From the NCBI GenBank assembly GCA_041488275.1, contig JBGPOY010000003.1, positions 78,092 to 142,091 on the forward strand: a DNA stretch of 64,000 nt, given 5' to 3'. The notes beneath the pieces were generated by a model. The model was not told the origin of the DNA. It ran no database searches and saw only the letters and a list, made by a program, of their open reading frames with translations. Positions within the stretch are counted from its first letter, which is position 1; every line of letters begins with the position of its first letter. Positions 38,072 to 54,546 of this stretch are shown piece by piece. Position numbers and translations under genes: made by a program. The DNA comes from Candidatus Nanoarchaeia archaeon (GTDB lineage Archaea; Nanobdellota; Nanobdellia; Woesearchaeales; ARS49).

Positions 38072-38533
38072 CTAACTGTCGGGCTCAATCTTCGTGATGA
38101 GTTCGCCGCTGCGGATGCGCGGAACGTTCTCTTCATCGGTGTACGAAACTTGAATCGTGCCCTTGAATTTCTTCCCGACCGTGCCGGTGCTGCAGGACGT
38201 GAGCGTGAAAGTGTTCTTGTCGCCGTTGATGAGCTCGCCGGCGCCGCCGCTGTAGTCCGCGGAGCAAATGGATGAACCGCTGGGCGTGAGCAGGTCAATC
38301 TTGGTAACGGAGATGTCCTGCCCGAGGTTGTTCTGGATGACAAACACCGCGGACGTCGCGGTGGCCTTGCTGCTCAGGCACGAAAGTCCGGTCGGCAGCG
38401 CGCACCGGTCCGGGAGGAACCGGTCTGCGTTGAGGATGCCGAAATAGACGAGCGCGGAGATGGCGACGAGAATGATGAGCAAAGCCCATCCGTAGGTCAT
38501 CAGGAATTCGAGCGCGGCTTGTCCTTTCTTCAT
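38072..38533 (-). CDS. Archaeal type IV pilin-like protein (class III signal peptide)
   Basis: MKKGQAALEFLMTYGWALLIILVAISALV (a KG|Q cleavage-type motif plus a hydrophobic helix). Confidence 0.8.
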   Translation of the reverse strand: MKKGQAALEFLMTYGWALLIILVAISALVYFGILNADRFLPDRCALPTGLSCLSSKATATSAVFVIQNNLGQDISVTKIDLLTPSGSSICSADYSGGAGELINGDKNTFTLTSCSTGTVGKKFKGTIQVSYTDEENVPRIRSGELITKIEPDS

Positions 38534-38997: not shown

Positions 38998-39711
38998 CTA
39001 AAACTTCGTGGGCTTGAGAACTTCCATGCCCTTATCGGTCACTTTGAGCGGCACCGGTCCTTTCTCGTGCTTGGTGCGGCGCATCTTGAGCACGCGGATC
39101 GCGCGATCGCTTTCGCCGCCGATGCCGGCGTTGTGCATCGTGATGACGCTGTCGGCGATGAATTCGACGATGCCGTCCCGTGAAAGCTTGCCGCCGCCGG
39201 AGATGTCGAGCGGCGCCTCGCCCTCGATTTCCGCCGTGAACAGCGTGGTGACGCCGAGTTTCTTGAGCGTGTCGGCGAGAATGTACAATTCCTTGCGCAT
39301 CTTGAAGTAGTTGTACTCGTACATCATCGCAAGTACTGAGATAGAGTCGACGACGAGCACGTCAATCTGTTTTTCCTGAATGAGGTGGACGAACTCCGCC
39401 TGCAAGCCGGGTCCGGTGATGGGTTGGAACGTGATGAACCAGCACTTGCCGTCCTTCTGAAGCTTGCCGAAGTCCCAGCCGAATTCCATGGCGTCGCCGA
39501 CAAGCGCGTCGAGGTTTTCCTCGAATGAGACATAGAGCCCTTTTTTGCCGCGCGCGATGGCGCTGTGCATGAACTGCAGGCAATAAATCGTCTTTCCCGT
39601 TCCGGTGCCTCCCGTGACGAGGTTGACGCTGCCTTCGACAAACCCGCCGTTGCACAGGGCGTCAAAGCCGGGAATGCCGGTCGGGAACCTGTCGTGCTTC
39701 GGTTTGGGCAT
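38998..39711 (-). CDS. Single-domain KaiC-like (RecA-superfamily) ATPase, intact Walker A
   Basis: FPTGIPGFDALCNGGFVEGSVNLVTGGTGTGKT and LVVDSIS (Walker B-like). The start was trimmed to MPKPKHD. Confidence 0.85.
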   Translation of the reverse strand: MPKPKHDRFPTGIPGFDALCNGGFVEGSVNLVTGGTGTGKTIYCLQFMHSAIARGKKGLYVSFEENLDALVGDAMEFGWDFGKLQKDGKCWFITFQPITGPGLQAEFVHLIQEKQIDVLVVDSISVLAMMYEYNYFKMRKELYILADTLKKLGVTTLFTAEIEGEAPLDISGGGKLSRDGIVEFIADSVITMHNAGIGGESDRAIRVLKMRRTKHEKGPVPLKVTDKGMEVLKPTKF

Positions 39712-39773
39712 ACCTCGCTCTCGTTTTGTTTCGTATTTAAGTATGCGTAACTCCTCAATCGTGGAGAACACGT

Positions 39774-39911
39774 GAGCGAAGGTCACCGCTCGCTCGGCCC
39801 GTCGCCCAGAAACGCAAGCTGCCCAAGCCGTTTGGTTCGTCGCAGCGACGGAGAAGCGCCGAGTTCTTGGCCGTCACTGCTGCCTCGCTCGCAGATTGGT
39901 GACCTTCGCTC
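39774..39911. repeat. Perfect 14-nt inverted repeat (GAGCGAAGGTCACC ... GGTGACCTTCGCTC) enclosing 110 nt
   Basis: Arms at 39774-39787 and 39898-39911, in the 268-nt divergent intergenic region. Confidence 0.7.
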
Positions 39912-39931
39912 TCTTGGCTTTGTTCGCAACA

Positions 39932-39940
39932 TTTATATAA
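39932..39940 (+). promoter_or_regulatory. TATA box (TTTATATAA) for the V4R-FIST-KaiC operon
   Basis: It lies about 40-48 nt upstream of the ATG at 39980. Confidence 0.5.
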
Positions 39941-39979
39941 GTCGCAAACGAAAACCTGCCTTGTGCAAAAAGAGGTTGT

Positions 39980-40465
39980 ATGCTCTCGGCGTTCCTGAAG
40001 AAACTCTTGTTCGCGCGCCAATTGTTCATGACGGACGGCACCATCGAGATTCTGGGAAAAAAGCAGATTATGCTTCCTTCTGACATCATCGTCGCGCTCC
40101 AGAGCCTTGACGAGAAACGCTACTACACGCTCATCAAAGAAGGTGTGAAGACCAGTCTCGGCGATTACGCCCACAAAATCGGCTCCACGAATGAGGGCAT
40201 GATGCGCATCACCGAAGACATTTTCGAGACGTTCGGGATGGGCAAGCCCGAAATCGCGGTGCTCGACCAAAAAAAGCGTTCGGCCGTTGTCCGGTTCCAT
40301 AACCCTCCGGTCGCCGAAGCGTGCGCGGACAACAAGTTCAAGGACTGCGTCCTGCTTCCCGCCGCGCTCGCGGGCATGTTTTCATTCCTGTTTGCAAAAG
40401 ACGTGAACTGCGACCTGACTCAGTGCAACATCAAAGGCGCGGTTTGCGAGTACGTGGTGAAATGA
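39980..40465 (+). CDS. V4R-domain (4-vinyl reductase-type) small-ligand-binding protein
   Basis: LFARQLFMTDGTIEILGKKQIMLPSDIIVAL, with the C-terminal Cys pattern C...CNIKGAVCEYVV typical of V4R. Confidence 0.75.
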   Translation: MLSAFLKKLLFARQLFMTDGTIEILGKKQIMLPSDIIVALQSLDEKRYYTLIKEGVKTSLGDYAHKIGSTNEGMMRITEDIFETFGMGKPEIAVLDQKKRSAVVRFHNPPVAEACADNKFKDCVLLPAALAGMFSFLFAKDVNCDLTQCNIKGAVCEYVVK

Positions 40466-41764
40466 ATGGCAAAAAACATCAATGTGAGCGTCGGCGTGAG
40501 CACCAAAACGGATCCGTACGCCGCGGGCGTCGAAGCCGCGACAGCGTCCTTGAAAGGGCTGCCGAAAACGCCCACGATTTCATACGTCTTTTACGCGGGC
40601 GAGTATGACCCGTATCAATTGAGCAAAGGGCTCTCCGCGGTCCTGCCGAAATCGGAATACGTCGGCGGCAGCGCGGACAGCGTGTTCTTCAACGACCAAA
40701 TCTACAGCACCGGCGTCGTCGTTGTCAGCGTGCAGTCGGATTACCTGCACGTCGGCGTCGCGTCGGCGGACAACGTCAGCAAAGCGCCTCGCAAGCTCGC
40801 GAAGGAAGTCATCAAGCAGGCGCTCCAGAAAGTTCCCATCGACAAATACGTCGACCCGTACCTGATGTTCACGCGCATGAAGGAATCGCCCGTGCACTGG
40901 ATGGTCAAGCTGCCGAGTTTCTTCATCGTCCTGTTCACGCGCGGCATCAAGCTGCCCGTGATGGGCGACGAAAAAGAAATCATCAAGGGCATCAGCGACG
41001 TCACCGGACTGCAAGTTCCGATTTGGGGCGGCAGTTTCGGCACCGACGGCATGAAAGTGCTCCGCGGCGAGAAGTACAACATCACGATGCTGCACTCCGG
41101 CAAGGTCATGCAGGACGGGCTCATCACGCTGTTCAACTCGAGCGCGCTGCTGTACAGCCAAAGCATGGAGAACGGCTGCGTTCCCACCGCGAAAACGGGC
41201 TTCGTCAGCAAAGTCTCCAGCGGCGGTTTTGTCGTCGAGGAAATCTCGAACCAGAACGTCATCGACTGGTACGCGCAGCAGCTGAACCTGCCGCGCGACA
41301 AGTTCCTCAAGGACGTTCGTTTTCTTTCGCAGCTGAACCCGCTCGGAGTTCCCGACCTGTTCGGCGGATTCATCATCCGCGGCGGCGGCATTCCCGCGGG
41401 CAACGGGCTCGCGTACGTCGCTCCTCTGACCGAAGGCTGGCCCGTGTACGTGATGCAGGGCGACGCGAAACACCTGATGAACGCGTCCGACCAAATCAAG
41501 GACGACATCCAGAACTACGTGCAGACCAAGGAAGGGCCGGAGCTCGCGCTCACCACGCTGTGCGTCACGCGCAAGCTCGTCTACCAAAAGGACACCATCA
41601 AGGAAATCAAGAAGCTGCGCAAGAATCTGGGCGCGAAAAACGTGGCGGGATTTGTCTGCTTCGGGGAAACCGGCTCGCGTCCGGGACAGCAGGCGATGTT
41701 CGAGCACGTCACCCTGAACGTGCTGACGCTGTATGACAAACTGATGACCAAGATGAACCAATGA
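40466..41764 (+). CDS. FIST-domain sensor protein (FIST_N + FIST_C)
   Basis: SVGVSTKTDPYAAGVEAA...ISYVFYAGEYDPYQLSKGLSAVLPKSEYVGGSA matches the FIST N-domain pattern. 432 aa. Confidence 0.8.
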   Translation: MAKNINVSVGVSTKTDPYAAGVEAATASLKGLPKTPTISYVFYAGEYDPYQLSKGLSAVLPKSEYVGGSADSVFFNDQIYSTGVVVVSVQSDYLHVGVASADNVSKAPRKLAKEVIKQALQKVPIDKYVDPYLMFTRMKESPVHWMVKLPSFFIVLFTRGIKLPVMGDEKEIIKGISDVTGLQVPIWGGSFGTDGMKVLRGEKYNITMLHSGKVMQDGLITLFNSSALLYSQSMENGCVPTAKTGFVSKVSSGGFVVEEISNQNVIDWYAQQLNLPRDKFLKDVRFLSQLNPLGVPDLFGGFIIRGGGIPAGNGLAYVAPLTEGWPVYVMQGDAKHLMNASDQIKDDIQNYVQTKEGPELALTTLCVTRKLVYQKDTIKEIKKLRKNLGAKNVAGFVCFGETGSRPGQQAMFEHVTLNVLTLYDKLMTKMNQ

Positions 41765-42990
41765 GCACCCTCATCGAGAAAAGGCGCTTTGCGTCGGACT
41801 TCGAGAAGTTCGTGTACGATTGCGAGAGCAAATTCTACCTCAAAGCGGTTGACGTGCCATCGGCGGTTTTCAGTCTTCCCGACTGGAACAACCTGACGCG
41901 CGCCGAAGGCGAACAGTTGATGCTGCCGTACATCCGCAAGAATATCGACCGCGCGATGCGCACGATGCCGGACGTCTACGCCTCGTACGCCCGTCTGGGC
42001 ATCACCGGCGACTCCATCAAAACAATCGAAGATTTTTGGAACCTTCCCGTACTTCCGAAGGACCCGAGCTCCGGCACCAACCTCTCCTTGCGCAACAAGT
42101 TTGAAAAAAACCCGCGCGTCCTGCTGCCGTCCGACCTTTCCGGAGCCGTGGACGCGTATTTTTCCGGCGGCACCAAGGGCAAGCCCGCGCCGACGTGGGT
42201 GACTGAGCACGACCTCGACGTGGAAAGCACGGCGTTCTCGCGCGCGATGGTGACCGGCGGCATCAAACCCTCCAGCACCATCATCAATTGCTACAACCCG
42301 TCGCACAAAGGCGGCGAAGAAGTCCACCGCGCGCTCAAGAGACTGGGCTGCACGTACATCAATGTCAAAACGACCGACAAAGCGCCGGAAATTTTGGGCT
42401 ACATTCAGGATTACAAGGACAAAAACCCGGAACGCGAACTCGTCTTCATCGGCGCGCAGCCGCCCATCAACGACGGCGACAAGCTCCACAAAGGCGGCGG
42501 CCGCACGCTGCTGGACATCGTCAACACCGACGCGGCGACGTTCGAAGACAACGTCGATGTCGTCCTGCTGGGAGGATTCCGCATCATTCCCGAAGTCGAG
42601 CGCTGGGCGCAGGCGTCCGGCAAGCCCGTGTTCACGATTTACGGCGCGACCGAAATCCTGCCCGCGTTTCTCGGCACGGCGCGCGGTCCCGAGAATCGGC
42701 TGTGCACGTACAACAACCTGCACGTGATGCACGGTCCCCACTACGCCGAACTCCTCAAGAACAATGGCGGGCGCTGGATTCCCGCAGAACCCGGCGAGCA
42801 GGGTATTGTCGCGTTCACGAGCGTCTTCCGAGAGGGAACGCTCTACCACCGGTATATCATCGGCGACCAAGCCGTGCTCAAGCACCCTGAAGGCGCGTGC
42901 CCGTGCGGTGTGAAGAGCGAAATTTGGAGCGACATCAAACGCATCGACAACCTCGCAGACCTCATCAAGAGCGGCTGCTGCGCAGACTGA
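41761..42990 (+). CDS. Adenylate-forming enzyme (PaaK / F390-synthetase / LuxE-like)
   Basis: P-loop-like FSGGTKGKP (compare SSGTTGKP). Size and layout are as in PaaK-like ligases. ATGA overlap with the FIST gene. Confidence 0.8.
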   Translation: MSTLIEKRRFASDFEKFVYDCESKFYLKAVDVPSAVFSLPDWNNLTRAEGEQLMLPYIRKNIDRAMRTMPDVYASYARLGITGDSIKTIEDFWNLPVLPKDPSSGTNLSLRNKFEKNPRVLLPSDLSGAVDAYFSGGTKGKPAPTWVTEHDLDVESTAFSRAMVTGGIKPSSTIINCYNPSHKGGEEVHRALKRLGCTYINVKTTDKAPEILGYIQDYKDKNPERELVFIGAQPPINDGDKLHKGGGRTLLDIVNTDAATFEDNVDVVLLGGFRIIPEVERWAQASGKPVFTIYGATEILPAFLGTARGPENRLCTYNNLHVMHGPHYAELLKNNGGRWIPAEPGEQGIVAFTSVFREGTLYHRYIIGDQAVLKHPEGACPCGVKSEIWSDIKRIDNLADLIKSGCCAD

Positions 42991-42991
42991 C

Positions 42992-44518
42992 ATGACCATC
43001 GCAACCCTTCCCGCATTCCAGAACCTCATTCGAGGCAAGTCCGTCTCGATGAGCGGCAGGCAGTTTGAAGCGCGCAGCGCGTTCTTCCCTGACTACGCCG
43101 TGCTTGCGACGGATTCGGATGAGCGCGACCTCGAGCGCGCAATCTCCATGACCAAGCGGGGACAGCAGGAACTCGCAAAGCTCACGTTCGAGGACCGCGA
43201 GCGCATCCTGAAGGACGCAAGTACGCGCCTGAAGTTCGACGACGCGGACATCGCGCACTGCGTGCAGATGATGGGCATGCCGTGGAATTCCGTCAAGGAC
43301 TACATCAAGATGATTCCCTTCCTGATGGACGGGATGCCCGGCACCGTGCGCACCATGATGGATATTATCGACGGCGTTCCCGGGTACACGCACCCCGCCA
43401 TTCCGGGCGTTGAGCTGAAAGTGCCGCACGACGGATTCGTGTACGGCGTGATTCCGAGCAACGACCCGCGCGCGACGCTGTTCGTTTTCTCTTTCCTCGC
43501 CGTTGCGGGCGTTCCCGCGGTTCTCAAGGTCAGCAAAAATGAGCTGCCGGTCGCGTACAAGGTCGTGCAAGCCGCCCTCGACGCGGGCTACCCGAAGGAA
43601 GCCGTCAGCGTTCTCACGTGGGATACACGCGATACCGACCGAGCAACCGCATTGCACTTCAAACTCGCCAAAGAAGCCGCTCGCACGGTCGCGTTCGGTT
43701 CCGACGACACGATTGACAACCTGCTCCGCTATGAGCGAAAAAACGTCATCGACCCTACGAGACTCGCGCAGTACCAAGGACAGCAGGTGAACCAAACGCT
43801 GATTGATTCGCTGACGGAAAACATCGTCGTTACCGACCTCGAAGGGCGGCTGATGCGGCACACGTCCGGCAACTGCGCGATGATTGTCACCGAAAGTGCC
43901 GACCCTCTCAAGGCGGCAGAACTCATCATGCAGTCTGCGTATCATTATCCCATCAGCTGCAAGTCGCTGAAAGCGCTCTACGCTGTCGGCGCGGCGCACG
44001 ACGTCCTGCTGAAAGTGCTTCCTGACCGCGTGAAGGGTTTGCTCGTCGGCAATCCGATGACGCCCGGCGTTGAAGTCGGCTACGTCGACAAGGAACTCCT
44101 CGACCAGACGCTGCCGCGCATGCAGGAACTCAAAGGGCTCGGACACGCGGACATCCTCGCGGGCGGCGACCGCGCGGGACCGTATCTGGCAAGCCCGCTC
44201 CTCGTCGCGGCGCACAACCCGACGTCCGACGGACTGCTCAACGAGCACTCAATGTACTTGTGCACGATGCGCCGCTGCGATTCGCTTGCGCAGGCAGTCG
44301 ACGAATGCAATCTCGCGGCGACAAAACAGCCGCGCCTGTCCGTCAGCGTCGTGACCGGCGACTCGCCCCAAGCGCGCGCCGAAGCGCGGCAGTACGAAAC
44401 GCGCATCAAGGCGGACCTCGTCCACGTCAACCAAGTCACGAATTTCCTGCACGGCGCCATTCATCAGGGCTATAACTACGTGCACGCTCTGTGCCGGACG
44501 CGGAGCGTACGGCGATGA
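42992..44518 (+). CDS. Aldehyde-dehydrogenase-superfamily protein (LuxC-like acyl-CoA/acyl-enzyme reductase candidate)
   Basis: 508 aa with ALDH-like segments (AGVPAVLKVS; candidate catalytic Cys in HTSGNCAMIV). It is paired with the adenylate-forming enzyme. Confidence 0.7.
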   Translation: MTIATLPAFQNLIRGKSVSMSGRQFEARSAFFPDYAVLATDSDERDLERAISMTKRGQQELAKLTFEDRERILKDASTRLKFDDADIAHCVQMMGMPWNSVKDYIKMIPFLMDGMPGTVRTMMDIIDGVPGYTHPAIPGVELKVPHDGFVYGVIPSNDPRATLFVFSFLAVAGVPAVLKVSKNELPVAYKVVQAALDAGYPKEAVSVLTWDTRDTDRATALHFKLAKEAARTVAFGSDDTIDNLLRYERKNVIDPTRLAQYQGQQVNQTLIDSLTENIVVTDLEGRLMRHTSGNCAMIVTESADPLKAAELIMQSAYHYPISCKSLKALYAVGAAHDVLLKVLPDRVKGLLVGNPMTPGVEVGYVDKELLDQTLPRMQELKGLGHADILAGGDRAGPYLASPLLVAAHNPTSDGLLNEHSMYLCTMRRCDSLAQAVDECNLAATKQPRLSVSVVTGDSPQARAEARQYETRIKADLVHVNQVTNFLHGAIHQGYNYVHALCRTRSVRR

Positions 44519-44979
44519 AGACCAAGCACCTCTTCGTCCCGCTGCTGGACGTCGGCGAAGTGCTGCCGTTCGCGGTGCGCAAGACCGAAACGCTGCAGGA
44601 AAGTTTCACCGAACAGGACCGCGCCAAACAGGCGCTCGTCAAGTTCGTGGACCAGCTGGAGCGCAAGCTCAAACAAAAAGTGTATTATATGGGTCTCGAC
44701 GTTATCGGTGAAAAAGCCTATGAACGGTTCATTTTTGACAAAGGAGGGTTCCTCGAAGTGATGGTGGAGAGTCCGGTCGCGCTGAACGCGCATTTCGTGC
44801 ATGAACTGCAGGCAAAAGCGTTTGCCAAGGCGCTGAAACTCGCGCTCACGGGCGCGCTGCCGAAGAGTCCGACCTCACAGCTGCTCATCGACAGCGTCGA
44901 AGTCCAGAACCAGGACGACACGAGTCTCACGGTCGAGAAATGGCACAAGCTCAAGGACATCCGCGAGGGAACCGCATGA
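44515..44979 (+). CDS. Hypothetical protein (154 aa)
   Basis: ATGA overlaps at both ends (44515 and 44976). No recognisable motif. Confidence 0.7.
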   Translation: MKTKHLFVPLLDVGEVLPFAVRKTETLQESFTEQDRAKQALVKFVDQLERKLKQKVYYMGLDVIGEKAYERFIFDKGGFLEVMVESPVALNAHFVHELQAKAFAKALKLALTGALPKSPTSQLLIDSVEVQNQDDTSLTVEKWHKLKDIREGTA

Positions 44980-45773
44980 ACATCACCCGCGTCAAGTCAG
45001 GCATCAGGGGTTTCGACGAGCTTGTCCAAGGCGGCATCCCGCAGGGCAGCAGCGTCGTCGTGTGCGGCACGCCCGGCACGGGTAAGACCATCTTCGCGCT
45101 CGAATTCCTGTTCCGCGGCGCCACCGAGTTCAACGACAAGTGCCTCTACGTCACGTTCGAGCAGACCGTCGACGCGCTCAAACAGCAGGCGTCGATGTTC
45201 GGCTGGAACCTCGAGCCGCTGCTGAAGAGCAAGAAGCTCGAAATCTGGAGCATCCCGATTGACGACCTCGACCACACGGTCGGCGACACGATTCTCGGCT
45301 ACGTCAAGACGAAGAACATCAAGCGCCTCGTCGTCGACTCGCTTTCGACGCTGGCCATCAACGCGCCGATTTACCAGCCGGTCAAGGACATCGCGCTGGT
45401 CGACATCATGAAGCAGAAGTCGTTCTTCTCGCCGCCGATTCTCGGCGACATCATCGTCCGCAGGTACATTTATTCGCTCGTCAACGAACTGCAGCACGTG
45501 AAACACTGCACGACCCTGCTCATCTCGGAGGGGACGAACGGCGGCGAATACCTGACCCGCGATACGGTCTCGGAATTCGCGAGCGACGGCATCGTCCACC
45601 TCGCGTTCGAGAGCGTCGCGTCAGGATACGCGAGAAGCATCACCGTGCGCAAACTGCGCGAAACGAAAAACGATCCCAACACGCACCCGCTGGAAATCGC
45701 AAAGACGGGAGTCGTGGTGCACAGCATCGTGCGCCAATACGGCGAACCCGACCGTGACGGCGTGTACCGCTAG
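44976..45773 (+). CDS. Single-domain KaiC-like ATPase, intact Walker A
   Basis: VKSGIRGFDELVQGGIPQGSSVVVCGTPGTGKT and LVVDSLS motifs. Confidence 0.9.
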   Translation: MNITRVKSGIRGFDELVQGGIPQGSSVVVCGTPGTGKTIFALEFLFRGATEFNDKCLYVTFEQTVDALKQQASMFGWNLEPLLKSKKLEIWSIPIDDLDHTVGDTILGYVKTKNIKRLVVDSLSTLAINAPIYQPVKDIALVDIMKQKSFFSPPILGDIIVRRYIYSLVNELQHVKHCTTLLISEGTNGGEYLTRDTVSEFASDGIVHLAFESVASGYARSITVRKLRETKNDPNTHPLEIAKTGVVVHSIVRQYGEPDRDGVYR

Positions 45774-45782
45774 GAGGAAACA

Positions 45783-46220
45783 ATGGCAACATTTACCGAA
45801 TTTTTCCGTGACCTGCACCAAGAAATGCAGTACCAACCCAGTAACGCAGTGTTCCTGTACGTCGTGGGCAAGAATCTCGCAAAGCGCAACAAAAACACCC
45901 TGCTGCAGGGCATCCGCCAAGTGGAGACGAACCGCGACATCGCGAAATTCATCTCGCACTTCAAGAAAAGCGGCATCGGCACGCTGAAACTCGTCTCTGC
46001 GGACCCGCGCAAGAAGGAATTCTACTTCGAGCTCAAGAACTCCGTGTTCAAGACCGGACTGAAGCGCCCGAGCTGCAGCGTCGTCGGGGGAATGCTCGCC
46101 AGTCTCGTCGAAGAAACGTACGGGTTCTACGCCGGCGCTCTCGAGACGGCGTGCGTCAGTCAAGGCGACCGGCAGTGCGAATTCAAGGTCAAGATTGTCG
46201 GCAAGGAGCCGCTGAGGTGA
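45783..46220 (+). CDS. V4R-domain protein (second copy)
   Basis: The C-terminus SCSVVGGMLASLVEETYG...ETACVSQGDRQCEFKV is a V4R hallmark. Confidence 0.75.
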   Translation: MATFTEFFRDLHQEMQYQPSNAVFLYVVGKNLAKRNKNTLLQGIRQVETNRDIAKFISHFKKSGIGTLKLVSADPRKKEFYFELKNSVFKTGLKRPSCSVVGGMLASLVEETYGFYAGALETACVSQGDRQCEFKVKIVGKEPLR

Positions 46221-46224
46221 ACCG

Positions 46225-46890
46225 ATGACCATCAAGACCGGCTGCGCGGCCGTCGACCGCATTCTCAACGGCAAACTGCCCGACAAGACCGTCGTGCTCA
46301 TCGAGCGCGACACCGGCATGAAGGACAGCCTCGAGCGTTTGTTCCTCCACAACAGCGTGAAGGCGAAAAACGGCGTCGGGTATTACGCGTTCTTCAACCA
46401 AACGAACAAGGATATCGAGAGCGCGTTCAAGGACCAGGGGCTGGACGTCACGCGCGAGATGAACGAGAAGCGCCTGTACTGGATTGACGAGAGCAACCAT
46501 TCCGAGGGCGAGAACGCCATCAACTGCAAGATTGACGAGCTGTTCACGGTCGAACTGGCGATGCTCCAGCTGCTCGAGAGCAACAAGGACAAGAAAATCC
46601 GCGGCGTCGTGCACCTGCTGACGCCGGCGCTCATCGCGAACGAGCCCGTATTGATTTACCAGTTCTTCTCGTACTTAGTCTCGACGCTGAAGAAGTACAA
46701 CACGCTGACCATCTTTCTCATCGAGCAGAATTTGCACGATGCAACCACCCTCAAGGCGATTGAGGGGCTGTGCGACGTCGTGCTGGAGACCAAGCTCGCG
46801 CAGGAAGACTTTGTCGTCAAGACGCTCGTGCGCGTCAAGAAGATGAAAGGCAACTCCGACACCAAGTTCCACGCGCTCCACGTTGCGTGA
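46225..46890 (+). CDS. KaiC-fold paralogue lacking the P-loop (predicted inactive)
   Basis: IKTGCAAVDRILNGKLPDKTVVLIERDTGMKDS aligns with the KaiC N-terminus, but GxxGxGKT is replaced by ERDTGMKD. Confidence 0.7.
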   Translation: MTIKTGCAAVDRILNGKLPDKTVVLIERDTGMKDSLERLFLHNSVKAKNGVGYYAFFNQTNKDIESAFKDQGLDVTREMNEKRLYWIDESNHSEGENAINCKIDELFTVELAMLQLLESNKDKKIRGVVHLLTPALIANEPVLIYQFFSYLVSTLKKYNTLTIFLIEQNLHDATTLKAIEGLCDVVLETKLAQEDFVVKTLVRVKKMKGNSDTKFHALHVA

Positions 46891-46893
46891 GCC

Positions 46894-47475
46894 ATGGCCG
46901 TAAGTCTCCGCGCCGAACTGAGAAGTCTTCCCGAGAACTACATGGTTCTGCTGATTCTCAATGTCAAGCAGTACTTTGAAGGCGTCATTGAAGTGCTCCG
47001 AATGCTGTGCAACGAGGAAAACCTTCCGGGAATCTACATCACGGTGAACAAGCCGTACGGCACGATGAAGGAACTGCTGCGCGACCGGGGCGTCAACACC
47101 TCCCGCATCTTTTTCATCGACGCCATCAGCCAGACCGTGACGCAGCCGAAGCTCACGAACCATCAGGTCATTTATCTCCCGAACCCGCAATCGCTCACGG
47201 ACCTATCGCTCGCGCTCAATGCCGCCGCGACCGCGCTCGAAGGCAGCAAGAAATTCCTGTTCATGGACTCGCTGTCGACGCTGCTGATTTACAACGAGAC
47301 CGAAAGCGTCGCCAAGTTCGCGCACTTTCTCACCATCAAGATGCGCTCGCTGAACATCAAGGGAGTGCTCATCGCGCTCCGCCAGATGCTGGACGAAGAG
47401 CTGATTTTTGAGGTTGCGCAATACTGCGACCGCGTCATCGACCTTTCTTCCGAAGTTATTGAGCTTGACCGCTAG
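46894..47475 (+). CDS. P-loop-less RecA/KaiC-like paralogue (family shared with 53951 and 54547)
   Basis: GIYITVNKPY...RIFFIDAIS...LTDLSLAL...FLFMDSLSTLLIYN are shared with the two downstream paralogues. Confidence 0.7.
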   Translation: MAVSLRAELRSLPENYMVLLILNVKQYFEGVIEVLRMLCNEENLPGIYITVNKPYGTMKELLRDRGVNTSRIFFIDAISQTVTQPKLTNHQVIYLPNPQSLTDLSLALNAAATALEGSKKFLFMDSLSTLLIYNETESVAKFAHFLTIKMRSLNIKGVLIALRQMLDEELIFEVAQYCDRVIDLSSEVIELDR

Positions 47476-47513: not shown

Positions 47514-47888
47514 ATGAAAAAAGGAGGGCAGGTCTCGGTCGAAGCGCTGTTCTCTCTCGGATTTATCGCGCTGATGTTCGGCACGATGCTGCTGTACTCG
47601 TACGAACGCCAGCAAGACCTTCGCACGGCGCGCACGGCAGCCGTGCGGCTGAACGACTGCCTCTCGGTCACGACCGCAATCATCGGACTGCTCGTAAATA
47701 GAGGCGGCACGGCGAACGTCACCGTGACGAACCGCATCGCCGTCAAGTCCGCTGCGCAGGTCGTCGAAGCGGGCGACGATGTTCCGTGCCGGCTTGCTAC
47801 GTCCGCAGTCACGAGCGGCGTCTTTGAGCCGGGCAGGCTTGTCTTCACGTCGCTTCCGAACGGCACCGTCGAGGTGTCGCATGCGTAA
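47514..47888 (+). CDS. Prepilin-like protein (class III signal peptide)
   Basis: MKKGGQVSVEALFSLGFIALMFGTMLLY. Confidence 0.7.
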   Translation: MKKGGQVSVEALFSLGFIALMFGTMLLYSYERQQDLRTARTAAVRLNDCLSVTTAIIGLLVNRGGTANVTVTNRIAVKSAAQVVEAGDDVPCRLATSAVTSGVFEPGRLVFTSLPNGTVEVSHA

Positions 47889-48357
47889 AGGGCAGATATT
47901 CAGCACCGACTTGCTGGTCGCGCTCGCAATCACTGCGCTGCTTTGGGGCTCGCTCGTCTTGGAGTTCCACTCATTCGAGCGCAGAAGTCAGGACGCGGAA
48001 ACCACGCACGCGCTCGAACTGCAGGCGATGCAAATTGTGGACCAGCTTACGCTCTCTCCCGGCGTTCCGTCGGCATGGGAAACGACCGGCGGCGCGCAGG
48101 CGCTCGGACTTGCGCAGACGCCGAACGTGCTTTCCAACGAAAAACTTGCCGCGTTCTTCGCGCTTGCTCCCGACGAGATTCGAAACCAGCTCAATATTCC
48201 TCCGCACCGCTTCCGATTCCGGATTCTTGCTTCCGACGGAACGCCGCTCGCGTCCGTCGGAGACCTTGATTCAACGAGAAAGACTCCCGTCATCGCGCTG
48301 CGGCGCCCGGCAGTAACCAATGCAACAACGACTATCGTGGAATTTACCCTGCAATAG
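47881..48357 (+). CDS. Prepilin-like protein (class III signal peptide)
   Basis: MRKGQIFSTDLLVALAITALLWGSLVL. Overlaps the upstream gene by 8 nt. Confidence 0.75.
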   Translation: MRKGQIFSTDLLVALAITALLWGSLVLEFHSFERRSQDAETTHALELQAMQIVDQLTLSPGVPSAWETTGGAQALGLAQTPNVLSNEKLAAFFALAPDEIRNQLNIPPHRFRFRILASDGTPLASVGDLDSTRKTPVIALRRPAVTNATTTIVEFTLQ

Positions 48358-48373
48358 AAACCGGCGCGGCGTG

Positions 48374-48760
48374 ATGCTGAGCCTCGACGCCACGCTCGGC
48401 GTCATTCTGGTTATCACCCTGCTCATCGCAGCAGACGTACAGATGCGCCACGCGAGCGAGGACTCATTGAGCTCCCTAAGCGTCGCGCAGTTCGGCGGCG
48501 CGGCAACCGCGACGCTCGACAAAACAGGCGTCCTCGCAACTCGGGACGCAGGAAGTATTGAAGCCGCGTTAACTCCTCTTCTCCAAGCAAATGTCGCGAT
48601 GCGGATTGCAGTGATGTGCGACGGCGGAACTAATCTCGCGACGAGCGCAACGATTCCTTCCAAACAATTCATCGCATCAGGAAAACGATACTTCGTGGTG
48701 ACCTCGGGAAATTCCATCGATGACCGGTGTGCCGCGACGTGGTGGGCGTGGACGCGATGA
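48374..48760 (+). CDS. Pilin-like accessory protein with an N-terminal hydrophobic helix (atypical signal)
   Basis: MLSLDATLGVILVITLLIAA. It lacks a basic-Gly cleavage motif if the ATG at 48374 is used. Confidence 0.55.
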   Translation: MLSLDATLGVILVITLLIAADVQMRHASEDSLSSLSVAQFGGAATATLDKTGVLATRDAGSIEAALTPLLQANVAMRIAVMCDGGTNLATSATIPSKQFIASGKRYFVVTSGNSIDDRCAATWWAWTR

Positions 48761-49554
48761 AACGCGGCGTGCTGCTTGCGTTGGGAAGTTTCTTTGTCGT
48801 TACTGCACTTTTCGCGTTTGCACTATTCATCGCGTCCCAGCAGAATGCGCACGACAAGCACGCAGTCCAGCTCGCCGCGCTCGAGCGCACTGCCGCGGTT
48901 GAGGATTCCGTGCTGAGTTCGCTTGGCGCGGTCTGGAACGCGACCGCGGGAATGAGCGTCGATGGCGGCGCAGACGACGTGACCGTGCACGATTCGCTTC
49001 CCGCCTCCGGAGTTTTGTCGTCGGAAATCAGCAATCTCAACACCTTCATCACGGCGCAGGATACCAACGTGCACATCGACATGAATGGAAACGCCGGCAC
49101 GCTCGCCCTGCCCGACGGCGTCACGTACGCGCGCACCGCCGACCGCCAAGTGACGGTCAACGCCGCGCCTCTGCCCGGCAATCGCTATGCGGTCACCGTC
49201 ACGGTCGGCGCGAACATCACGTCCTGCGCCGAAAGCGTGACCGCGGGAGCGTTCGAGCTCGCCGTGCGCGTGGACGGCGCGGGCGGAAGCGACTGCGTGA
49301 AAGAGCTCGGCGTCGACTCCGCCGCAAACAACCGCGTCGCCATTGGCACGGACGCGGGAACGATTGATGTGGACTTGAATGCAACCACGCTCATCATCAG
49401 CAGCGCGCCGGACATCGAACTCGCGACCCAGCTGCGGTACAACCGCACCTCTGGCCAGCGAGGCGAGGCGCGGCTCATGAACGTGCAAGCGACTGTCGCG
49501 ATTCCGAATCTGAAATTGGTGCGAACGGATACGCCAATTGTGGCAGTGTGGTGA
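48757..49554 (+). CDS. Prepilin-like protein (class III signal peptide), larger subunit
   Basis: MKRGVLLALGSFFVVTALFAFALFI. ATGA overlap with the upstream gene. Confidence 0.7.
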   Translation: MKRGVLLALGSFFVVTALFAFALFIASQQNAHDKHAVQLAALERTAAVEDSVLSSLGAVWNATAGMSVDGGADDVTVHDSLPASGVLSSEISNLNTFITAQDTNVHIDMNGNAGTLALPDGVTYARTADRQVTVNAAPLPGNRYAVTVTVGANITSCAESVTAGAFELAVRVDGAGGSDCVKELGVDSAANNRVAIGTDAGTIDVDLNATTLIISSAPDIELATQLRYNRTSGQRGEARLMNVQATVAIPNLKLVRTDTPIVAVW

Positions 49555-49653: not shown

Positions 49654-49660
49654 TTTTTTT
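49654..49660 (+). terminator. Oligo-T tract (T7) after the pilin operon and repeat copy C
   Basis: CCTCTTTTTTTGCG. Confidence 0.45.
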
Positions 49661-50296: not shown

Positions 50297-50560
50297 ATGG
50301 GTCTGCTGAAGAAAGCTGAACTGCAAAGTACGAAGGGTGCGGGAGTACGAGACGACCGCGTTGAGACCGACATCGACCGGCTGTACGCGCTCGTGCTCGA
50401 GAAAGCGCCGCTGAAGCTCGGAGCCGCCGCCGTGTTGCTCGGCAAGCGCCGCGAACTCGTCGAGGACTGGGCGCGCACGCTCGAAGCCGCGTCGCTCATC
50501 AAAATCCACTACCCCGCCGTCGGGGAGCCTGAGCTGGAGCATCCGAATGGACGTCGTTGA
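50297..50560 (+). CDS. Small hypothetical protein (possible wHTH), N-terminal GLLKKAE motif
   Basis: 87 aa. Overlaps the ATPase gene by 14 nt. Confidence 0.55.
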   Translation: MGLLKKAELQSTKGAGVRDDRVETDIDRLYALVLEKAPLKLGAAAVLLGKRRELVEDWARTLEAASLIKIHYPAVGEPELEHPNGRR

Positions 50561-52043
50561 GGAATATCTCGTTTCCGCCGAGGGCGCGACCGCGAACGTC
50601 ACGATTCGCGGAGAAGGAACCACCGCGCGCACGTACGACGTCTCCATTCCGCGCATCGCCGCGGGAACGCAGGCATTGCTGGAGGACATCAAGCGCCAGC
50701 TCGCCGCGACGCTGAGCGTCAGTCCGGCGGAACTGCTCGACAACAACGCGGTCGCCTCGCTCAAACAGAAAGTCGCGATGGACGCGCGCACCATGCTCAC
50801 GGCGCGATTGCCCGAAACGCAGGAGCAGCTGCGCGATTTGCTCGTTACTTCAATTCTCAACAGCACGCTCGGCTTGGGCGACATCGAATACCTGCTCAAC
50901 GACCCCGTGCTGGAAGAAATCGTCATCCCCTCGGCAAACGCCCGCGTGCGCGTCTACCACAAAAAGCACGGCTGGCTGGAAACCAATGTTGTCGTCTCGA
51001 GCGAGCAGCAGGTGCAGAACTACGCGAGCATCATCGCCCGAAGAGTAGGCAAGCAAGTCACGACGCTCACGCCGCTGCTTGACGCTGCGCTCACGACCGG
51101 AGACCGCGCGAACGCCGTGCTCTATCCCATCTCGAGCAAGGGCAACACCATTACCATCAGAAAGTTCGCGCGCGAGCCGTGGACGATTGTCGACCTCGTC
51201 ACCAACGGCACGATTTCGTCCGGCGTCGCCGCCCTCCTGTGGACCGCGATTCAGTACGAAATGAACATTCTTGTCTCGGGCGGCACGGCGTCGGGAAAAA
51301 CGTCGCTGCTCAACGTCATGCTCGCGTTCATGCCGCCCAACCACCGTATCCTGAGCATCGAGGACACGCGCGAACTGCAGCTGCCCGACCATCTGTTCTG
51401 GGCGCCGCTCACGACACGCGCGCCCGGTCCGGAAGGCGAGGGCGAAGTCACGATGCTCGACCTGCTCGTCAACGCGCTGCGTATGCGCCCCGACCGCATT
51501 GTCCTCGGAGAAGTGCGCCGCCAGCGCGACGCGGAAGTGATGTTCGAGGCGATGCATACCGGCCACTCGGTATACGCGACCGTCCACGCGGACTCGGCGC
51601 AGGAGACCATTCGCCGGCTCGTGTTCCCGCCCATCAGCGTGCCGCCGAACCTCCTGCAGGCGGTGAACCTCAACGTCGTGATGTTCCGCGACCGCCGCAG
51701 GGGAATCCGCCGCGTCTCGCAGGTCGCCGAATTCGTGACGGCGGAAGAAGGCGAACGCGTCACGGTCAAGCCGAACGTCATTTACCGCTGGCTTCCGGAC
51801 GAGGACACCATCGTTCCGTTCAACAACAGCCTCCGCTTCTTCGAAGACCTGTCGCGGCACACCGGACTCACGCAGGACGACATCACCGCCAACGTGATGG
51901 ACCGCAAGGCGGTGCTTGACTGGCTCGTGCAGACGAAACAGCGCGACCTCGCGTCCGTCGGGAGAATCATGCAGGAATTCGCGCTCGACCCCGCCAAGGT
52001 CATCAGGCAGGCGCGCACCGCGCTGAAGCGTTCCGAGGGATAA
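50547..52043 (+). CDS. Type IV pilus/archaellum-type assembly ATPase (FlaI/ArlI/PilB, GspE-VirB11 superfamily)
   Basis: Walker A VSGGTASGKTS, SIEDTRELQL, RPDRIVLGEVR and HTGHSVYATVHA motifs. Confidence 0.95.
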   Translation: MDVVEEYLVSAEGATANVTIRGEGTTARTYDVSIPRIAAGTQALLEDIKRQLAATLSVSPAELLDNNAVASLKQKVAMDARTMLTARLPETQEQLRDLLVTSILNSTLGLGDIEYLLNDPVLEEIVIPSANARVRVYHKKHGWLETNVVVSSEQQVQNYASIIARRVGKQVTTLTPLLDAALTTGDRANAVLYPISSKGNTITIRKFAREPWTIVDLVTNGTISSGVAALLWTAIQYEMNILVSGGTASGKTSLLNVMLAFMPPNHRILSIEDTRELQLPDHLFWAPLTTRAPGPEGEGEVTMLDLLVNALRMRPDRIVLGEVRRQRDAEVMFEAMHTGHSVYATVHADSAQETIRRLVFPPISVPPNLLQAVNLNVVMFRDRRRGIRRVSQVAEFVTAEEGERVTVKPNVIYRWLPDEDTIVPFNNSLRFFEDLSRHTGLTQDDITANVMDRKAVLDWLVQTKQRDLASVGRIMQEFALDPAKVIRQARTALKRSEG

Positions 52044-52925
52044 ATGCGGCTTCCCGTGACGCTGCTCCCGGGGCTGGCGCTCCACCGCATTACCACCCCG
52101 CTCACGGGCGTCGCGAGCGGTCTTGAAATCGCGTTTCCTTTTCTGAAGCTGCATTTGCGGCACGCGGACATCAAAATGAGTTCCGCGGAATATCTCGCGG
52201 CAAACATCGTGTCCAGCGCGGTTTTCGGCGCTGCGGTATTCGCAATCGCGCTGTTCGTCACCTTGACTGCAGGTCTCACTCCGCCCCTGCTCATTTCCCT
52301 CGGCGCGGGGTTGATTATCGCGGTGCTGGTCTGGTTCCAGAATCTGCTCGTTCCGAAAGCGCTCATCGCGAAGAAAGTTTCGAGCCTCGAACGCAACCTG
52401 ATTCCCGCGCTGAGCGACATGCTCGTGCAGCTGCACTCCGGCATTCCGCTGTTCGACATTCTCGTCAACATCGCGAACGGCGATTACGGCGCGGTGTCCA
52501 CGGAGTTCAAGCGCGCCGTGCGCCGCATCTCGTCGGGAGAAAGCCAGGTGTCCGTGCTTGAAGAACTCGCTACGGGAAACCCGAGCGTGTTTTTCCGACG
52601 CCTCCTTTCCCAAGTCGTCAACGCGCTGAAAACAGGAGCAAGCATCAGTTCCGTCCTGACGGACGGCATCACGCGGCTGAGCGATGAACAGGTCATTCAA
52701 ATCCAGAAGTACGGCGGCTACCTCAACAGTCTGACGATGTTTTACCTGATGACCGCGGTCATCGCGCCCGCGCTGCTGATGACCGGCGCGGTTGTCCTGT
52801 CGTTCTTCTTTTCCGTGACGCCGTTCTGGACCGCCATCGGATTTGTCGTCATTTACTTCATGGTCGTCTTCATCCAGGTCGCGTTCCTCGGCATGCTGCG
52901 CACGCGGAGGCCGAACCTGCTGTGA
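52044..52925 (+). CDS. T2SS-F-domain platform protein, first half (TadB/FlaJ-like)
   Basis: 293 aa with 3-4 TM helices flanking a cytoplasmic helical domain (LIPALSDMLVQLHSGIPLFDIL). Confidence 0.85.
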   Translation: MRLPVTLLPGLALHRITTPLTGVASGLEIAFPFLKLHLRHADIKMSSAEYLAANIVSSAVFGAAVFAIALFVTLTAGLTPPLLISLGAGLIIAVLVWFQNLLVPKALIAKKVSSLERNLIPALSDMLVQLHSGIPLFDILVNIANGDYGAVSTEFKRAVRRISSGESQVSVLEELATGNPSVFFRRLLSQVVNALKTGASISSVLTDGITRLSDEQVIQIQKYGGYLNSLTMFYLMTAVIAPALLMTGAVVLSFFFSVTPFWTAIGFVVIYFMVVFIQVAFLGMLRTRRPNLL

Positions 52926-53863
52926 GACCGCACGGACTCCGCGCACGGTTTGCGATGGCGTTAGATCACGCAGGGTTGCGCGTGCGCGTCGGAAGGTTCC
53001 TCGGCACCACCGCGATGCTGTCGCTGGTCGCGGGAATTATCGTCGGGATGGTTGCAGCGCTGCTCGGGCAGAGCGGCTGGCTGTTTGGGGTGGGCGCGTT
53101 TGTGCTCGGGGAAATCGGCTGGGCGTTCTGGCTCGTGCTCCGCGCGGACGCGAAATCCCAGTTCATTGAAAGCGTGCTTCCCGACGCGATGGACCTGATG
53201 GCCGCGAATTTGCGCGCCGGACTGACGACCGACCGCGCGTTGCTGCTCGCCTCCCGGCCGGAATTCGGACCGCTACAGGAAGAGCTCGACCGCGCCGGGC
53301 GCGAAATCGCGCTGGGGAGAAGCGTTCCGGACGCGCTCGCCGCCCTCGGCGCGCGCATTTCCTCGGAGCGCGTGCGCAAGACGCTCGCCCTCATCATTTC
53401 CGGGCTGCGCTCGGGCGGCAGGCTCGCGGAACTGCTGTCGCAGGCGTCGCTCGCGCTCAAACAGCAGACGGTCGTGGAGCGCAAAGTCGCGAGTACCGTG
53501 ACCGTCTACGTGATTTTCATTTTCACCGCGGTCGTGCTGGGCGCGCCGTTTTTGTTTGCCGTGAGCGCGTTCCTGACCGAAACGCTTTCGGGAATTATCG
53601 GGAACATTGACATCAGCGACGTGCCTACGGGATTTCTTCCCGGAGTGACGCCCGGCGCGGGGCTTCCGCTCGAAGCGGTCACGATTCTTGCGGTCGCGCT
53701 GCTGCTCACCATCGGACTGGTCTCCTGCTTGGTCGCCGGACAAATCGGGACGGGCAGAATGCGATCCGGTGTCAAATACGCGCCGTTGGTGCTGCTCAAT
53801 GTCGCGCTGTTCTTCCTCATTCGCTGGGGGCTGAAGGCGGGATTGGGCGTCCTTTTCGGGTAA
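52922..53863 (+). CDS. T2SS-F-domain platform protein, second half (TadC/FlaJ-like)
   Basis: 313 aa with LPDAMDLMAANLRAGLTTDRAL. GTG start overlapping the upstream stop. Confidence 0.85.
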   Translation: MRPHGLRARFAMALDHAGLRVRVGRFLGTTAMLSLVAGIIVGMVAALLGQSGWLFGVGAFVLGEIGWAFWLVLRADAKSQFIESVLPDAMDLMAANLRAGLTTDRALLLASRPEFGPLQEELDRAGREIALGRSVPDALAALGARISSERVRKTLALIISGLRSGGRLAELLSQASLALKQQTVVERKVASTVTVYVIFIFTAVVLGAPFLFAVSAFLTETLSGIIGNIDISDVPTGFLPGVTPGAGLPLEAVTILAVALLLTIGLVSCLVAGQIGTGRMRSGVKYAPLVLLNVALFFLIRWGLKAGLGVLFG

Positions 53864-53950
53864 GCAAGATTTATAAAGCGCCCGTGCATTAAGCACGGTA
53901 AAAAGGGTGTAGTATGAACGTCACGAACCAAGTGCGTTCCTGGGGGAGTT

Positions 53951-54520: not shown

Positions 54521-54546
54521 GCCTGCTGCAGGTCAGGTGAGCGAGC

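Follow-up and report, generated by a model that had tools for sequence, protein, structure and literature searches.

A cassette that places KaiC-like ATPases beside putative sensor proteins and a pair of carboxylate-processing enzymes was analysed in a 64,000-nucleotide stretch of a Candidatus Nanoarchaeia archaeon genome (assembly GCA_041488275.1, contig JBGPOY010000003.1, positions 78,092 to 142,091 of the forward strand), hereafter called the window. The letters g1 to g9 denote, in order, the plus-strand genes at 39980-47475, and g0 is a minus-strand KaiC gene at 38998-39711. Comparison of related loci indicates that the conserved unit is KaiC (g0)-V4R (g1)-FIST (g2)-ligase (g3)-reductase (g4)-g5, and that g6-g9 are a lineage-specific add-on. 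We read this unit as a DPANN-wide signalling module in which an aldehyde-producing input layer (g2-g4) would feed a core made of KaiC, V4R and g5 (g0, g1 and g5), and we rate this reading as close to, though still short of, an even chance. Gene content, motifs, conservation and the non-orthologous displacement of the enzyme pair are direct observations.

Conservation was examined using g5 as bait in genome and metagenome collections, and the neighbouring genes were typed by tblastn with the window proteins and with divergent proteins found in the same slots. The census covers DPANN loci that hold g5 and span at least 8 kb, 43 after removal of redundancy, designated by L-numbers. A g1-type V4R gene is present in 36 of them, a reductase or aldehyde dehydrogenase (ALDH) gene in 35 and a FIST gene in 34; a KaiC homologue of any type (detected with g0, g6 or the gene at 55929 as query) lies within 10 kb in 34. 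V4R, FIST and reductase genes occur together in 31 loci, with a ligase gene too in 27, and the combination of V4R, FIST, reductase and KaiC is found in 25. Contig ends account for most incomplete loci. The set is kept and the gene order is permuted, as in the arrangement KaiC-g5-V4R-FIST-ligase-reductase. Relatives that carry a name belong to Woesearchaeota, Nanoarchaeota/Nanoarchaeia, Pacearchaeota and Norongarragalinales. The records of contigs from L011 (DATILO010000018.1), L010, L013-L016 and others give the source as ‘Candidatus Binatia bacterium’ or ‘uncultured Methanosarcinales archaeon’; on contigs that hold the DPANN cassette, such labels are probably binning or taxonomy errors.

The original prediction, made from the letters of the window, took the nine genes g1-g9 as the unit of interest. 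The array is real, but the unit of conservation is g0-g5 and not the nine genes. The full array with its flanking pilin genes is kept in L044/L045 and L048, and L011/L049 retain it with a different enzyme pair; g7-type V4R genes are found in 3 of the 43 loci and inactive KaiC genes in 6. The prediction had also staked itself on the existence of the cassette elsewhere, and here it fared well: besides the nine genes of L044/L045 and L048, the six-gene core recurs in dozens of DPANN loci. Orthologues of g0, with 41-89% identity, adjoin the cassette in related loci. The conserved KaiC partner is the g0 orthologue and not g6, and g0 lay outside the coordinates initially proposed.

The strongest evidence on function comes from the slot between FIST and g5, which almost always holds a 360-450-aa protein followed by a 435-540-aa protein. 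In L018, the slot is occupied by a bona fide LuxE (PF04443, 1e-36) and a bona fide LuxC (PF05893, 9e-34), and in L042 by LuxE (8e-20) and LuxC (6e-50). In L023, the slot holds a pair closely related to that of L018, identified by homology to L018 and not by domain scan. Most other loci harbor truncated PaaK-like and ALDH-like proteins, several with secondary LuxC matches; same-slot LuxC matches were also detected in L008, L011 (7e-8) and L021 (4e-12). In L022, the occupants are a full-length PaaK (AMP-binding_C_2, 3e-9), a canonical ALDH and an aromatic amino-acid lyase. Because of this non-orthologous displacement, the function of the slot is predicted to be carboxylate activation followed by reduction: the slot would be functionally constant without being orthologous, and its enzymology is well supported at the sequence level. 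The comparison between L011 and the window points in the same direction. Genes g0, g1 and g5-g9 are 69-89% identical, FIST is only 28% identical, and the enzyme pairs are unrelated by BLAST; hence, the input module has been swapped inside a conserved scaffold. A 1032-aa protein of L030 (3483-6581) was considered as a ligase-reductase fusion and was not used as evidence: only residues 798-868 are ALDH-like, the ligase profile gave no match, and the N-terminal 700 aa match nothing tested.

In the window, the first occupant of the slot is g3 (41761-42990, plus strand), a 409-aa adenylate-forming enzyme assigned to the PaaK family by profile, motifs and the fold of an AlphaFold2 (AF2) model. Matches of g3 alone are weak (AMP-binding, 1e-3 in Pfam; PaaK, 1e-14 in NCBIfam). 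The profile of its family matches the PaaK structure 4r1l (1e-17), and the AF2 model, with a predicted local distance difference test score (pLDDT) of 77 and a predicted template modelling score (pTM) of 0.80, retrieves PaaK-family structures in Foldseek (E 6e-18, TM score ~0.64). The motifs SGGTKGKP (a phosphate loop of the SSGTTG type), YGATE and IGD are kept, and S135-G-G-T138, G295/E298 and G368-D369 are invariant. The protein has no ANL C-terminal subdomain: only ~25 aa follow its CPCG motif, which corresponds to PaaK residue 318 of 436, and its model contains no extra domain. The PaaK C-terminal subdomain that bears the catalytic Lys for formation of coenzyme A (CoA) thioesters is therefore absent from g3, both in the alignment and in the model.

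Two features of the truncated protein are conserved. G405-C406, four residues from the C-terminus, is invariant in the 11 family members, and K244, also invariant, lies in a loop modelled with low confidence; low pLDDT values are found at 235-246 (the K244 loop) and at 404-409 (the tail, below 50). The near-terminal Cys extends beyond the g3 family, since 26 of 28 cassette ligases, true LuxE types included, have Gly-Cys or Cys in their last ~20 residues. One of the two ligases that lack it is the full-length PaaK of L022, which retains the C-terminal domain and, by its sequence, can use CoA. The g3 family itself amounts to 11 clusters among 5.8 billion proteins in a word-indexed search, and more divergent same-slot ligases were found only via synteny. 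All five independent contexts of the family keep V4R-FIST-ligase-ALDH-g5, with KaiC genes nearby.

This architecture recalls that of LuxE, which has no C-terminal subdomain and uses a Lys238 loop in place of the missing catalytic Lys (PMC9157457); its flexible TRxxKGCxLS tail delivers the acyl group, bound to Cys364, to LuxC at Cys296 (PMC9157457, PMC12648314). Like LuxC-LuxE, the fatty acid reductase of luminous bacteria (Tian et al. 2022, PMC9157457), the cassette has an adenylating enzyme devoid of the ANL C-terminal subdomain, a short flexible Gly-Cys tail on that enzyme (here a predicted acyl carrier), and an adjacent gene for an ALDH-superfamily partner with the catalytic Cys and without the hydrolytic Glu. 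The differences are also clear: by their scores, g3 is PaaK-like and g4 a generic ALDH; a PaaK-family fold points to aryl or short acids and not to myristate; neither luciferase nor LuxD is found in the cassette; and the pair is archaeal and has FIST, V4R, KaiC and g5 around it. The best sequence and fold matches of g3 are PaaK ligases and EhpF, and EhpF is likewise short, with PDB chains of 366-369 aa vs 436-443 for PaaK. PaaK differs from g3 in that it makes CoA thioesters by means of the C-terminal subdomain, instead of which g3 has a Cys-bearing tail. We consider g3 a PaaK-family enzyme that would be LuxE-like by mechanism only, a view based on its architecture and on displacement in the same slot.

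The second occupant, g4 (42992-44518, plus strand, 508 aa), is an ALDH-superfamily protein (Pfam Aldedh, 1e-24) with the signature of thioester reductases. Catalytic Cys323 and the oxyanion Asn157 are kept and H290 (in HTSGN) replaces the general-base Glu, a pattern that corresponds to LuxC-type, acylating reductases. All 21 cassette reductases compared have the catalytic Cys, and the Asn is mostly kept. The general-base Glu, which in ordinary ALDHs hydrolyses the thioester, is replaced in every reductase partnered with a ligase, and is found only in three ligase-less loci (L013, L014 and L035). Given the ligase tail and these Cys/Glu signatures, the common denominator of the slot would be acid/aldehyde interconversion, mostly reductive. 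Motifs, displacement in the slot and the Cys/Glu pattern of the reductases thus bear out the proposal that the pair is able to activate and reduce a carboxylate.

As to the substrate, the closest structures to g3 found by Foldseek all act on aryl or short branched acids. Accessory enzymes are found inside the cassette in several loci: an aromatic amino-acid lyase in L022 (7249-8874, 2e-186), a Beta_methylindole_red_C protein in L093 (9312-10892), and two class IV aminotransferases in L003 (12735-14862), where a short-chain dehydrogenase/reductase is also present in the slot. These enzymes hint at aromatic or amino-acid-derived substrates. In L017 (4996-6774) and L024 (5129-6823), a ketopantoate-reductase-like protein with a C-terminal receiver (REC) domain is encoded directly after the ligase/reductase pair; judging from its domains, the fusion ties the cassette to two-component-type signalling in those lineages.

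Accessory enzymes of this kind, including the L017/L024 ketopantoate-reductase-like proteins, are what one would expect of an ordinary small-molecule pathway operon, in which g3 and g4, with extra enzymes in some lineages, would break down or build a compound that is aromatic or derived from amino acids. FIST and V4R would then only regulate the pathway, at the transcriptional or allosteric level, and KaiC and g5 would be unrelated neighbours or housekeeping partners. The presence of a canonical hydrolytic ALDH instead of a reductase in three loci also speaks for such an operon. We regard it as unlikely, though a serious competitor. The recurrence of KaiC is hard to reconcile with it: 34 of the 43 loci have a KaiC homologue within 10 kb, and g0-type orthologues (41-89% identity) recur beside the cassette. 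On a rough estimate, which was not computed, a handful of KaiC paralogues in a genome of ~1 Mb would give about 10% by chance. Furthermore, loci devoid of the enzymes still combine g5 and V4R with KaiC (L039, L029, L072 and L080), DPANN archaea are metabolically minimal, and neither a transporter nor an aldehyde-consuming enzyme is consistently linked to the cassette.

The small protein g5 (44515-44979, plus strand, 154 aa), which the original prediction had passed over as an unknown, is the most conserved and most widespread component of the cassette. It belongs to an uncharacterised DPANN family with the motif YERFxFxKGGFxE...NAHF, with 95 clusters that share at least 47% identity; when 1.84 billion representatives (50% level) were searched with a profile, 93 clusters were retrieved. 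No match was found in Pfam, NCBIfam, PADLOC or the sequences of the PDB. The AF2 model is confident (pLDDT 87, pTM 0.79), and a fold could not be assigned from it, as a Foldseek search of the PDB returned only SirA, the spermine synthase N-domain and roadblock/Ragulator, with a best E of 7e-3 and TM scores below 0.4.

Members of the g5 family come in several formats: stand-alone proteins of ~150 aa, proteins of 220-233 aa with two C-terminal transmembrane helices, and proteins of 680-1550 aa in which the g5 domain comes directly after the single transmembrane helix. Ig-like domains and Cys-rich repeats make up the large proteins, which also bear a signal or anchor sequence and numerous N-glycosylation sequons. 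From this topology we infer that g5 is a cytoplasmic, membrane-proximal domain. The use of g5 as the tail of surface proteins, with no obvious metabolic role, is another point against an ordinary pathway operon.

Two types of putative sensor accompany g5 in the cassette, and for these, as for the remaining proteins, the domain assignments made in the original prediction were upheld by searches with Pfam, NCBIfam and family profiles. The first gene, g1 (39980-40465, plus strand), encodes a stand-alone 161-aa protein of the V4R family. Alone, g1 remains below the Pfam V4R (PF02830) cutoff (19.7 vs 31 bits); V4R is matched by 11 of 22 g1 orthologues (best 3e-12), and the family profile matches the stand-alone V4R protein MJ1460 (2osd, 1.5e-4). 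The N-terminus has a conserved FLKKLLFARQF motif, and the invariant columns are K7, L9, R13, G20, L25, G86, G88 and F134. A second V4R protein, g7 (45783-46220, plus strand, 145 aa), is of the MsvR type and was assigned directly (Pfam V4R, 1.3e-7, 32.0 bits vs a cutoff of 31; NCBIfam MsvR, 8e-8, in the C-terminal part). The likeness to MJ1460 (2osd), to the phenol-sensing domains of MopR/PoxR and to MsvR lies in the small stand-alone V4R fold. Unlike known V4R proteins, g1 forms a subfamily of its own, with an N-terminal FLKKLLFARQF helix, and lacks an output domain of the DNA-binding or AAA+ type. Of the V4R sensors already described, some bind aromatic ligands and others respond to the redox state via Cys.

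The other putative sensor, g2 (40466-41764, plus strand, 432 aa), is a stand-alone FIST_N+FIST_C protein (FIST_N, 1e-17, 65.2 vs 23.2 bits; FIST_C, 2e-12, 48.0 vs 28.5 bits in Pfam). It has 54 homologue clusters, and those few with source names are all from DPANN archaea. Some homologues with 50-52% identity are ~70 aa longer; one of them, P0209, has N-terminal winged helix-turn-helix matches in Pfam and belongs to an otherwise identical cassette. A more distant FIST protein in L035 carries an N-terminal helix-turn-helix (HTH) domain as well. The HTH-FIST forms fit a ligand-responsive regulator, and they would equally fit the pathway-specific transcription factor of a small-molecule operon. 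Like NosP-type sensors, g2 combines FIST_N with FIST_C, and the FIST proteins of the cassette are, as is usual for sensor modules, either stand-alone or fused to an HTH domain. It differs from NosP in having no associated histidine kinase or cyclic-di-GMP enzyme; no histidine kinase was found in any locus gene list examined. The NosP equivalog of NCBIfam scores 30 bits vs a cutoff of 450.

V4R proteins also lend themselves to an explanation based on protein acylation or cofactor loading, in which the acyl group would pass from the Cys of g3 to a Cys of V4R, FIST or g5, and g4 would edit or remove it. Self-palmitoylation of Bet3/TRAPP and the loading of p-coumarate onto photoactive yellow protein are parallels, and the lyase and ligase of L022 resemble the pair of tyrosine ammonia-lyase and p-coumarate ligase that makes the chromophore of the latter. 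C-terminal Cys residues are kept in g1 and g7, and V4R itself has been proposed as the prokaryotic ancestor of a eukaryotic vesicle-transport component (PMC2253512). We nevertheless consider acylation improbable: the reductase is nearly universal and keeps the catalytic Cys and the nucleotide-binding motif, which points to aldehyde release, and there is no invariant Cys either in g1 or in the family alignment of g5.

The KaiC-family proteins of the window include putatively active and inactive forms. The divergent gene g0 encodes a single-domain KaiC-like ATPase (Pfam KaiC, 2e-52) with Walker A GGTGTGKT, the SFEE motif and Walker B VVDS. The second KaiC-like ATPase, g6 (44976-45773, plus strand, with an alternative start at 44940), matches Pfam KaiC (8e-52) and KaiC structures in the PDB (2.5e-39), shows the motifs GTPGTGKT, TFEQ and VVDS, and has an insertion of ~25-30 aa after Walker B; g6 orthologues are found in L011, L044 and L048. 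The KaiC-family residues (Walker A GxxGxGKT, EE pair and Walker B Asp) are thus all present in g0, and are present in g6 with the exception of one Gln. A third P-loop ATPase of 342 aa is encoded at 55929-56957 (plus strand; 36% identity to g0 in tblastn). It has an N-terminal extension of ~110 aa and matches KaiC genes of nearly all related loci.

In the inactivated forms, the fold is still KaiC-like, but Walker A and the catalytic residues have degenerated. In g8 (46225-46890, plus strand; Pfam KaiC, 8e-12), the alignment shows ERDTGMKDS in place of the P-loop, FFNQ for FEE and VVHL for Walker B VVDS. Its neighbour g9 (46894-47475, plus strand; DUF7504, 1e-8; KaiC, 5e-5) has no P-loop and is paralogous to two further P-loop-less KaiC/DUF7504 genes at 53951-54520 and 54547-55092 (plus strand). 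The coexistence of active and inactive KaiC paralogues announced in the original prediction is therefore confirmed by P-loop motifs, Pfam matches to KaiC and DUF7504, and alignment. With the genes at 53951-56957 included, an 18-kb stretch of the window holds three active-looking and four inactive KaiC-fold proteins.

Neither g0 nor g6 is a clock KaiC: both have a single domain (237-265 aa) and score 132-148 bits against an NCBIfam equivalog cutoff of 408, and KaiB is absent from the gene list of the window. NCBIfam matches of the window KaiC proteins to ArlH and KaiC_arch_3/4 are far below the cutoffs. Both KaiC-like ATPases as archaeal signalling hubs and inactivated KaiC proteins are published concepts (Makarova, Galperin and Koonin 2017, cited in PMC5847659), and the linkage between KaiC and type IV pili (T4P) is already known in archaea (PMC4858521). 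The cassette resembles such hubs, and ArlH, in having single-domain KaiC/RecA ATPases with P-loop-less paralogues, encoded beside putative sensor domains and T4P loci. It differs in the partners, namely V4R, FIST, the LuxE/LuxC-type pair and the g5 family. No description of the combination of FIST, V4R, KaiC and LuxE/LuxC, or of the g5 family, was found in the searchable literature, a coverage that leaves out the 2017 KaiC paper of Makarova and colleagues.

Two side observations concern the KaiC genes of other loci. In several Woesearchaeota loci (L020:8796-9134, L030:55-396 and L037:8267-8611), a conserved protein of ~113 aa (…KRKLSEMEKQVIF…) is encoded before the cassette KaiC; Pfam assigns it to no family, and the window encodes no counterpart. 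In L005 and L008/L036, which are two distant lineages, a second conserved block adjoins the cassette and consists of an unknown ~385-aa protein, a tiny open reading frame, a rhomboid protease and two KaiC genes.

In the signalling module that we favor, g3 would adenylate a small carboxylic acid, by analogy probably of the aryl or short branched type. Because g3 lacks the subdomain for CoA thioesterification, the acyl group would be parked on its flexible C-terminal Cys406, as LuxE does on Cys364; g4 would then, in the manner of LuxC, accept it on Cys323 and use NAD(P)H to release it as the free aldehyde. FIST (g2), whose gene is always directly upstream of the enzyme pair, would be the ligand-binding partner of the acid/aldehyde step, and V4R (g1) and g5 would pass the acid/aldehyde state on to g0, the KaiC-like ATPase. 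The place of action of g5 would be the membrane face, given that its domain recurs in large surface proteins as their cytoplasmic tail. In this lineage only, the duplicated KaiC-V4R pair (g6 and g7) and the inactive paralogues (g8, g9 and those at 53951-55092) would extend the hub. The local output would likely be the type IV filament machine and the pilins that surround the cassette and are probably co-transcribed with it. This signalling logic is a reasoned model, in which substrate, binding partners, protein contacts and output are inferred.

Several observations weigh against the signalling module. Identification of g3 as LuxE was rejected, as none of the 11 family members matches Pfam LuxE (PF04443) at E ≤ 1, and g4 has no match to Pfam LuxC (PF05893), only to Aldedh. 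In g6, the second catalytic Glu is Gln (TFEQ), which makes its activity uncertain. L039 holds only g5, V4R and KaiC, and L038 only g5 and KaiC over 20 kb; such loci lack the enzymes, which would thus be dispensable for the core. The distribution suggests that g5, V4R and KaiC are the signalling core, and that FIST and the enzymes were added on. Lastly, the original prediction proposed that the cassette gates filament assembly or adhesion. A type IV filament as output is plausible here, inside a pilin and T4P locus, but it is not general: a T2SSE-type ATPase gene lies within 10 kb of the cassette in only 4 of the 43 loci (L016, L027, L035 and L048).

A bolder version of the proposal, which we regard as doubtful, is that g5 is a new cytoplasmic signalling domain of DPANN archaea located at the inner membrane face (free, anchored, or as the tail of giant adhesin- or receptor-like surface proteins), which would operate with V4R and KaiC in a pathway that reads an enzymatically made aldehyde. 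An acid of the aromatic or short-chain type, scavenged and possibly of host origin, would be turned into an aldehyde signal by the LuxE/LuxC-style pair, and FIST and V4R would read the intracellular aldehyde. If this were true, episymbiotic DPANN archaea would couple the chemical environment of the host to their pili and adhesins. Whatever the version, KaiC-like ATPases are proposed main signalling hubs of archaea whose inputs and partners are almost unknown, and the cassette provides a compact, widely conserved test case: it offers a chemically tractable input, two candidate ligand-binding proteins and a new domain linked to the membrane and the cell surface. The module is kept in many reduced, host-dependent and regulator-poor DPANN genomes, and hence it likely matters for their lifestyle. 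In addition, a truncated PaaK with a Cys-bearing tail would widen CoA-independent carboxylate reduction beyond bioluminescence.

The arrangement of the genes in the window is as initially described: the open reading frame list and a check of junctions gave the nine-gene array with the same coordinates, overlaps and gaps of 9 nt at most. The junctions of g1-g9 are, in order, 0, -4, +1, -4, -4, +9, +4 and +3 nt; g1 and g2 abut at 40465/40466, and ATGA overlaps are found at 41761, 44515 and 44976. The nine genes have a common coding-type composition, with G+C contents of 0.76-0.89 at third codon positions and 0.29-0.42 at second positions in a genome with 58% GC, and Shine-Dalgarno-like GGAGG/GGTGA motifs precede the internal genes.

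Between g0 and g1, the 268 bp at 39712-39979 form a putative divergent promoter region, with a TTTATA box at 39932 on the plus strand, which precedes the g1 ATG by 48 nt, and, ~25 nt before the g0 ATG on the minus strand, an AT-rich box at 39733-39744. Counts of TATA boxes (TTTATA) were used to locate transcription starts. The hexamer is rare in this GC-rich genome: the plus strand has 12 copies in 64 kb, mostly 30-80 nt before plus-strand gene starts, at positions that include 2763, 23558, 25083, 36447, 39932, 53870 and 57208. For this organism, TTTATA can serve to recognise archaeal TATA boxes and the starts of operons. None is found on the plus strand between 39932 and 53870, and the first long run of T after g1 is a T7 at 49654. 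Because the sole canonical plus-strand TATA box of that interval precedes g1 and the first T7 lies at 49654, the transcription unit probably extends past 47475, to include g1-g9 and four small-protein genes, up to 49554.

These four genes (47514-49554, plus strand), which begin after a 38-nt gap from g9, encode proteins whose N-termini are hydrophobic, two or more of them pilin-like (MKKGGQVSVEALF... and MRKGQIFSTDLLVAL...); the four genes are kept after g9 in L044 and L048. On the other side, g0 heads a minus-strand KaiC-pilin-pilin unit: directly downstream, after a 4-nt gap, lie two pilin-like genes (38072-38533 and 38580-38978/38993, minus strand) whose products start with MKKGQAALEFL and MKRGQVALEVL, resembling class III signal peptides, the pilin call being made on the N-terminal sequence only. 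Pilin homologues follow the g0 orthologue in L044, L048 and L017. Downstream of the four small-protein genes, a type IV filament machine is encoded at 50547-53863 (plus strand), with a T2SSE-type ATPase (50547-52043, plus strand; Pfam T2SSE) and two T2SSF/TadC-type membrane proteins, as annotated by precomputed Pfam matches on a contig of identical sequence. The TTTATA at 53870 precedes the paralogues of g9 mentioned above.

The window sequence is identical to part of a 103-kb Joint Genome Institute (JGI) metagenome contig (3300052990, Ga0534153_0000110), where the archaeal housekeeping genes for Spt5, L11, FtsZ and SecE lie directly upstream. This context (Spt5, L11, FtsZ) and a GC content that is not atypical argue against an anti-virus defence or mobile-element island that happens to hold KaiC/RecA-like ATPases. 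Such an island might be suspected from a weak match of g0 to the PADLOC ‘mad8’ model (5e-5) and from toxin-antitoxin genes near the cassette in L003. PADLOC found nothing else, the other nine proteins having no match; conservation is vertical, with g5 at 47-78% identity across phyla, and integrases or repeats are not consistently linked. A defence role was therefore rejected as very improbable.

Two kinds of additional genes deserve mention. Small open reading frames at 4250-4855 and 20472-21689 (minus strand) encode very His/Lys-rich products (e.g. KHAKKHVKTHAKTHHPKTHHAKAKH and HHALHPAHPVHHAVHHAPKK), which may bind metals or be of low complexity. The T4P/KaiC locus is closely followed by an open reading frame (57852-64000, plus strand) that exceeds 2049 codons and runs off the window end; with a hydrophobic N-terminus and many NxS/T sequons, its product looks like a giant surface or adhesin-like protein.

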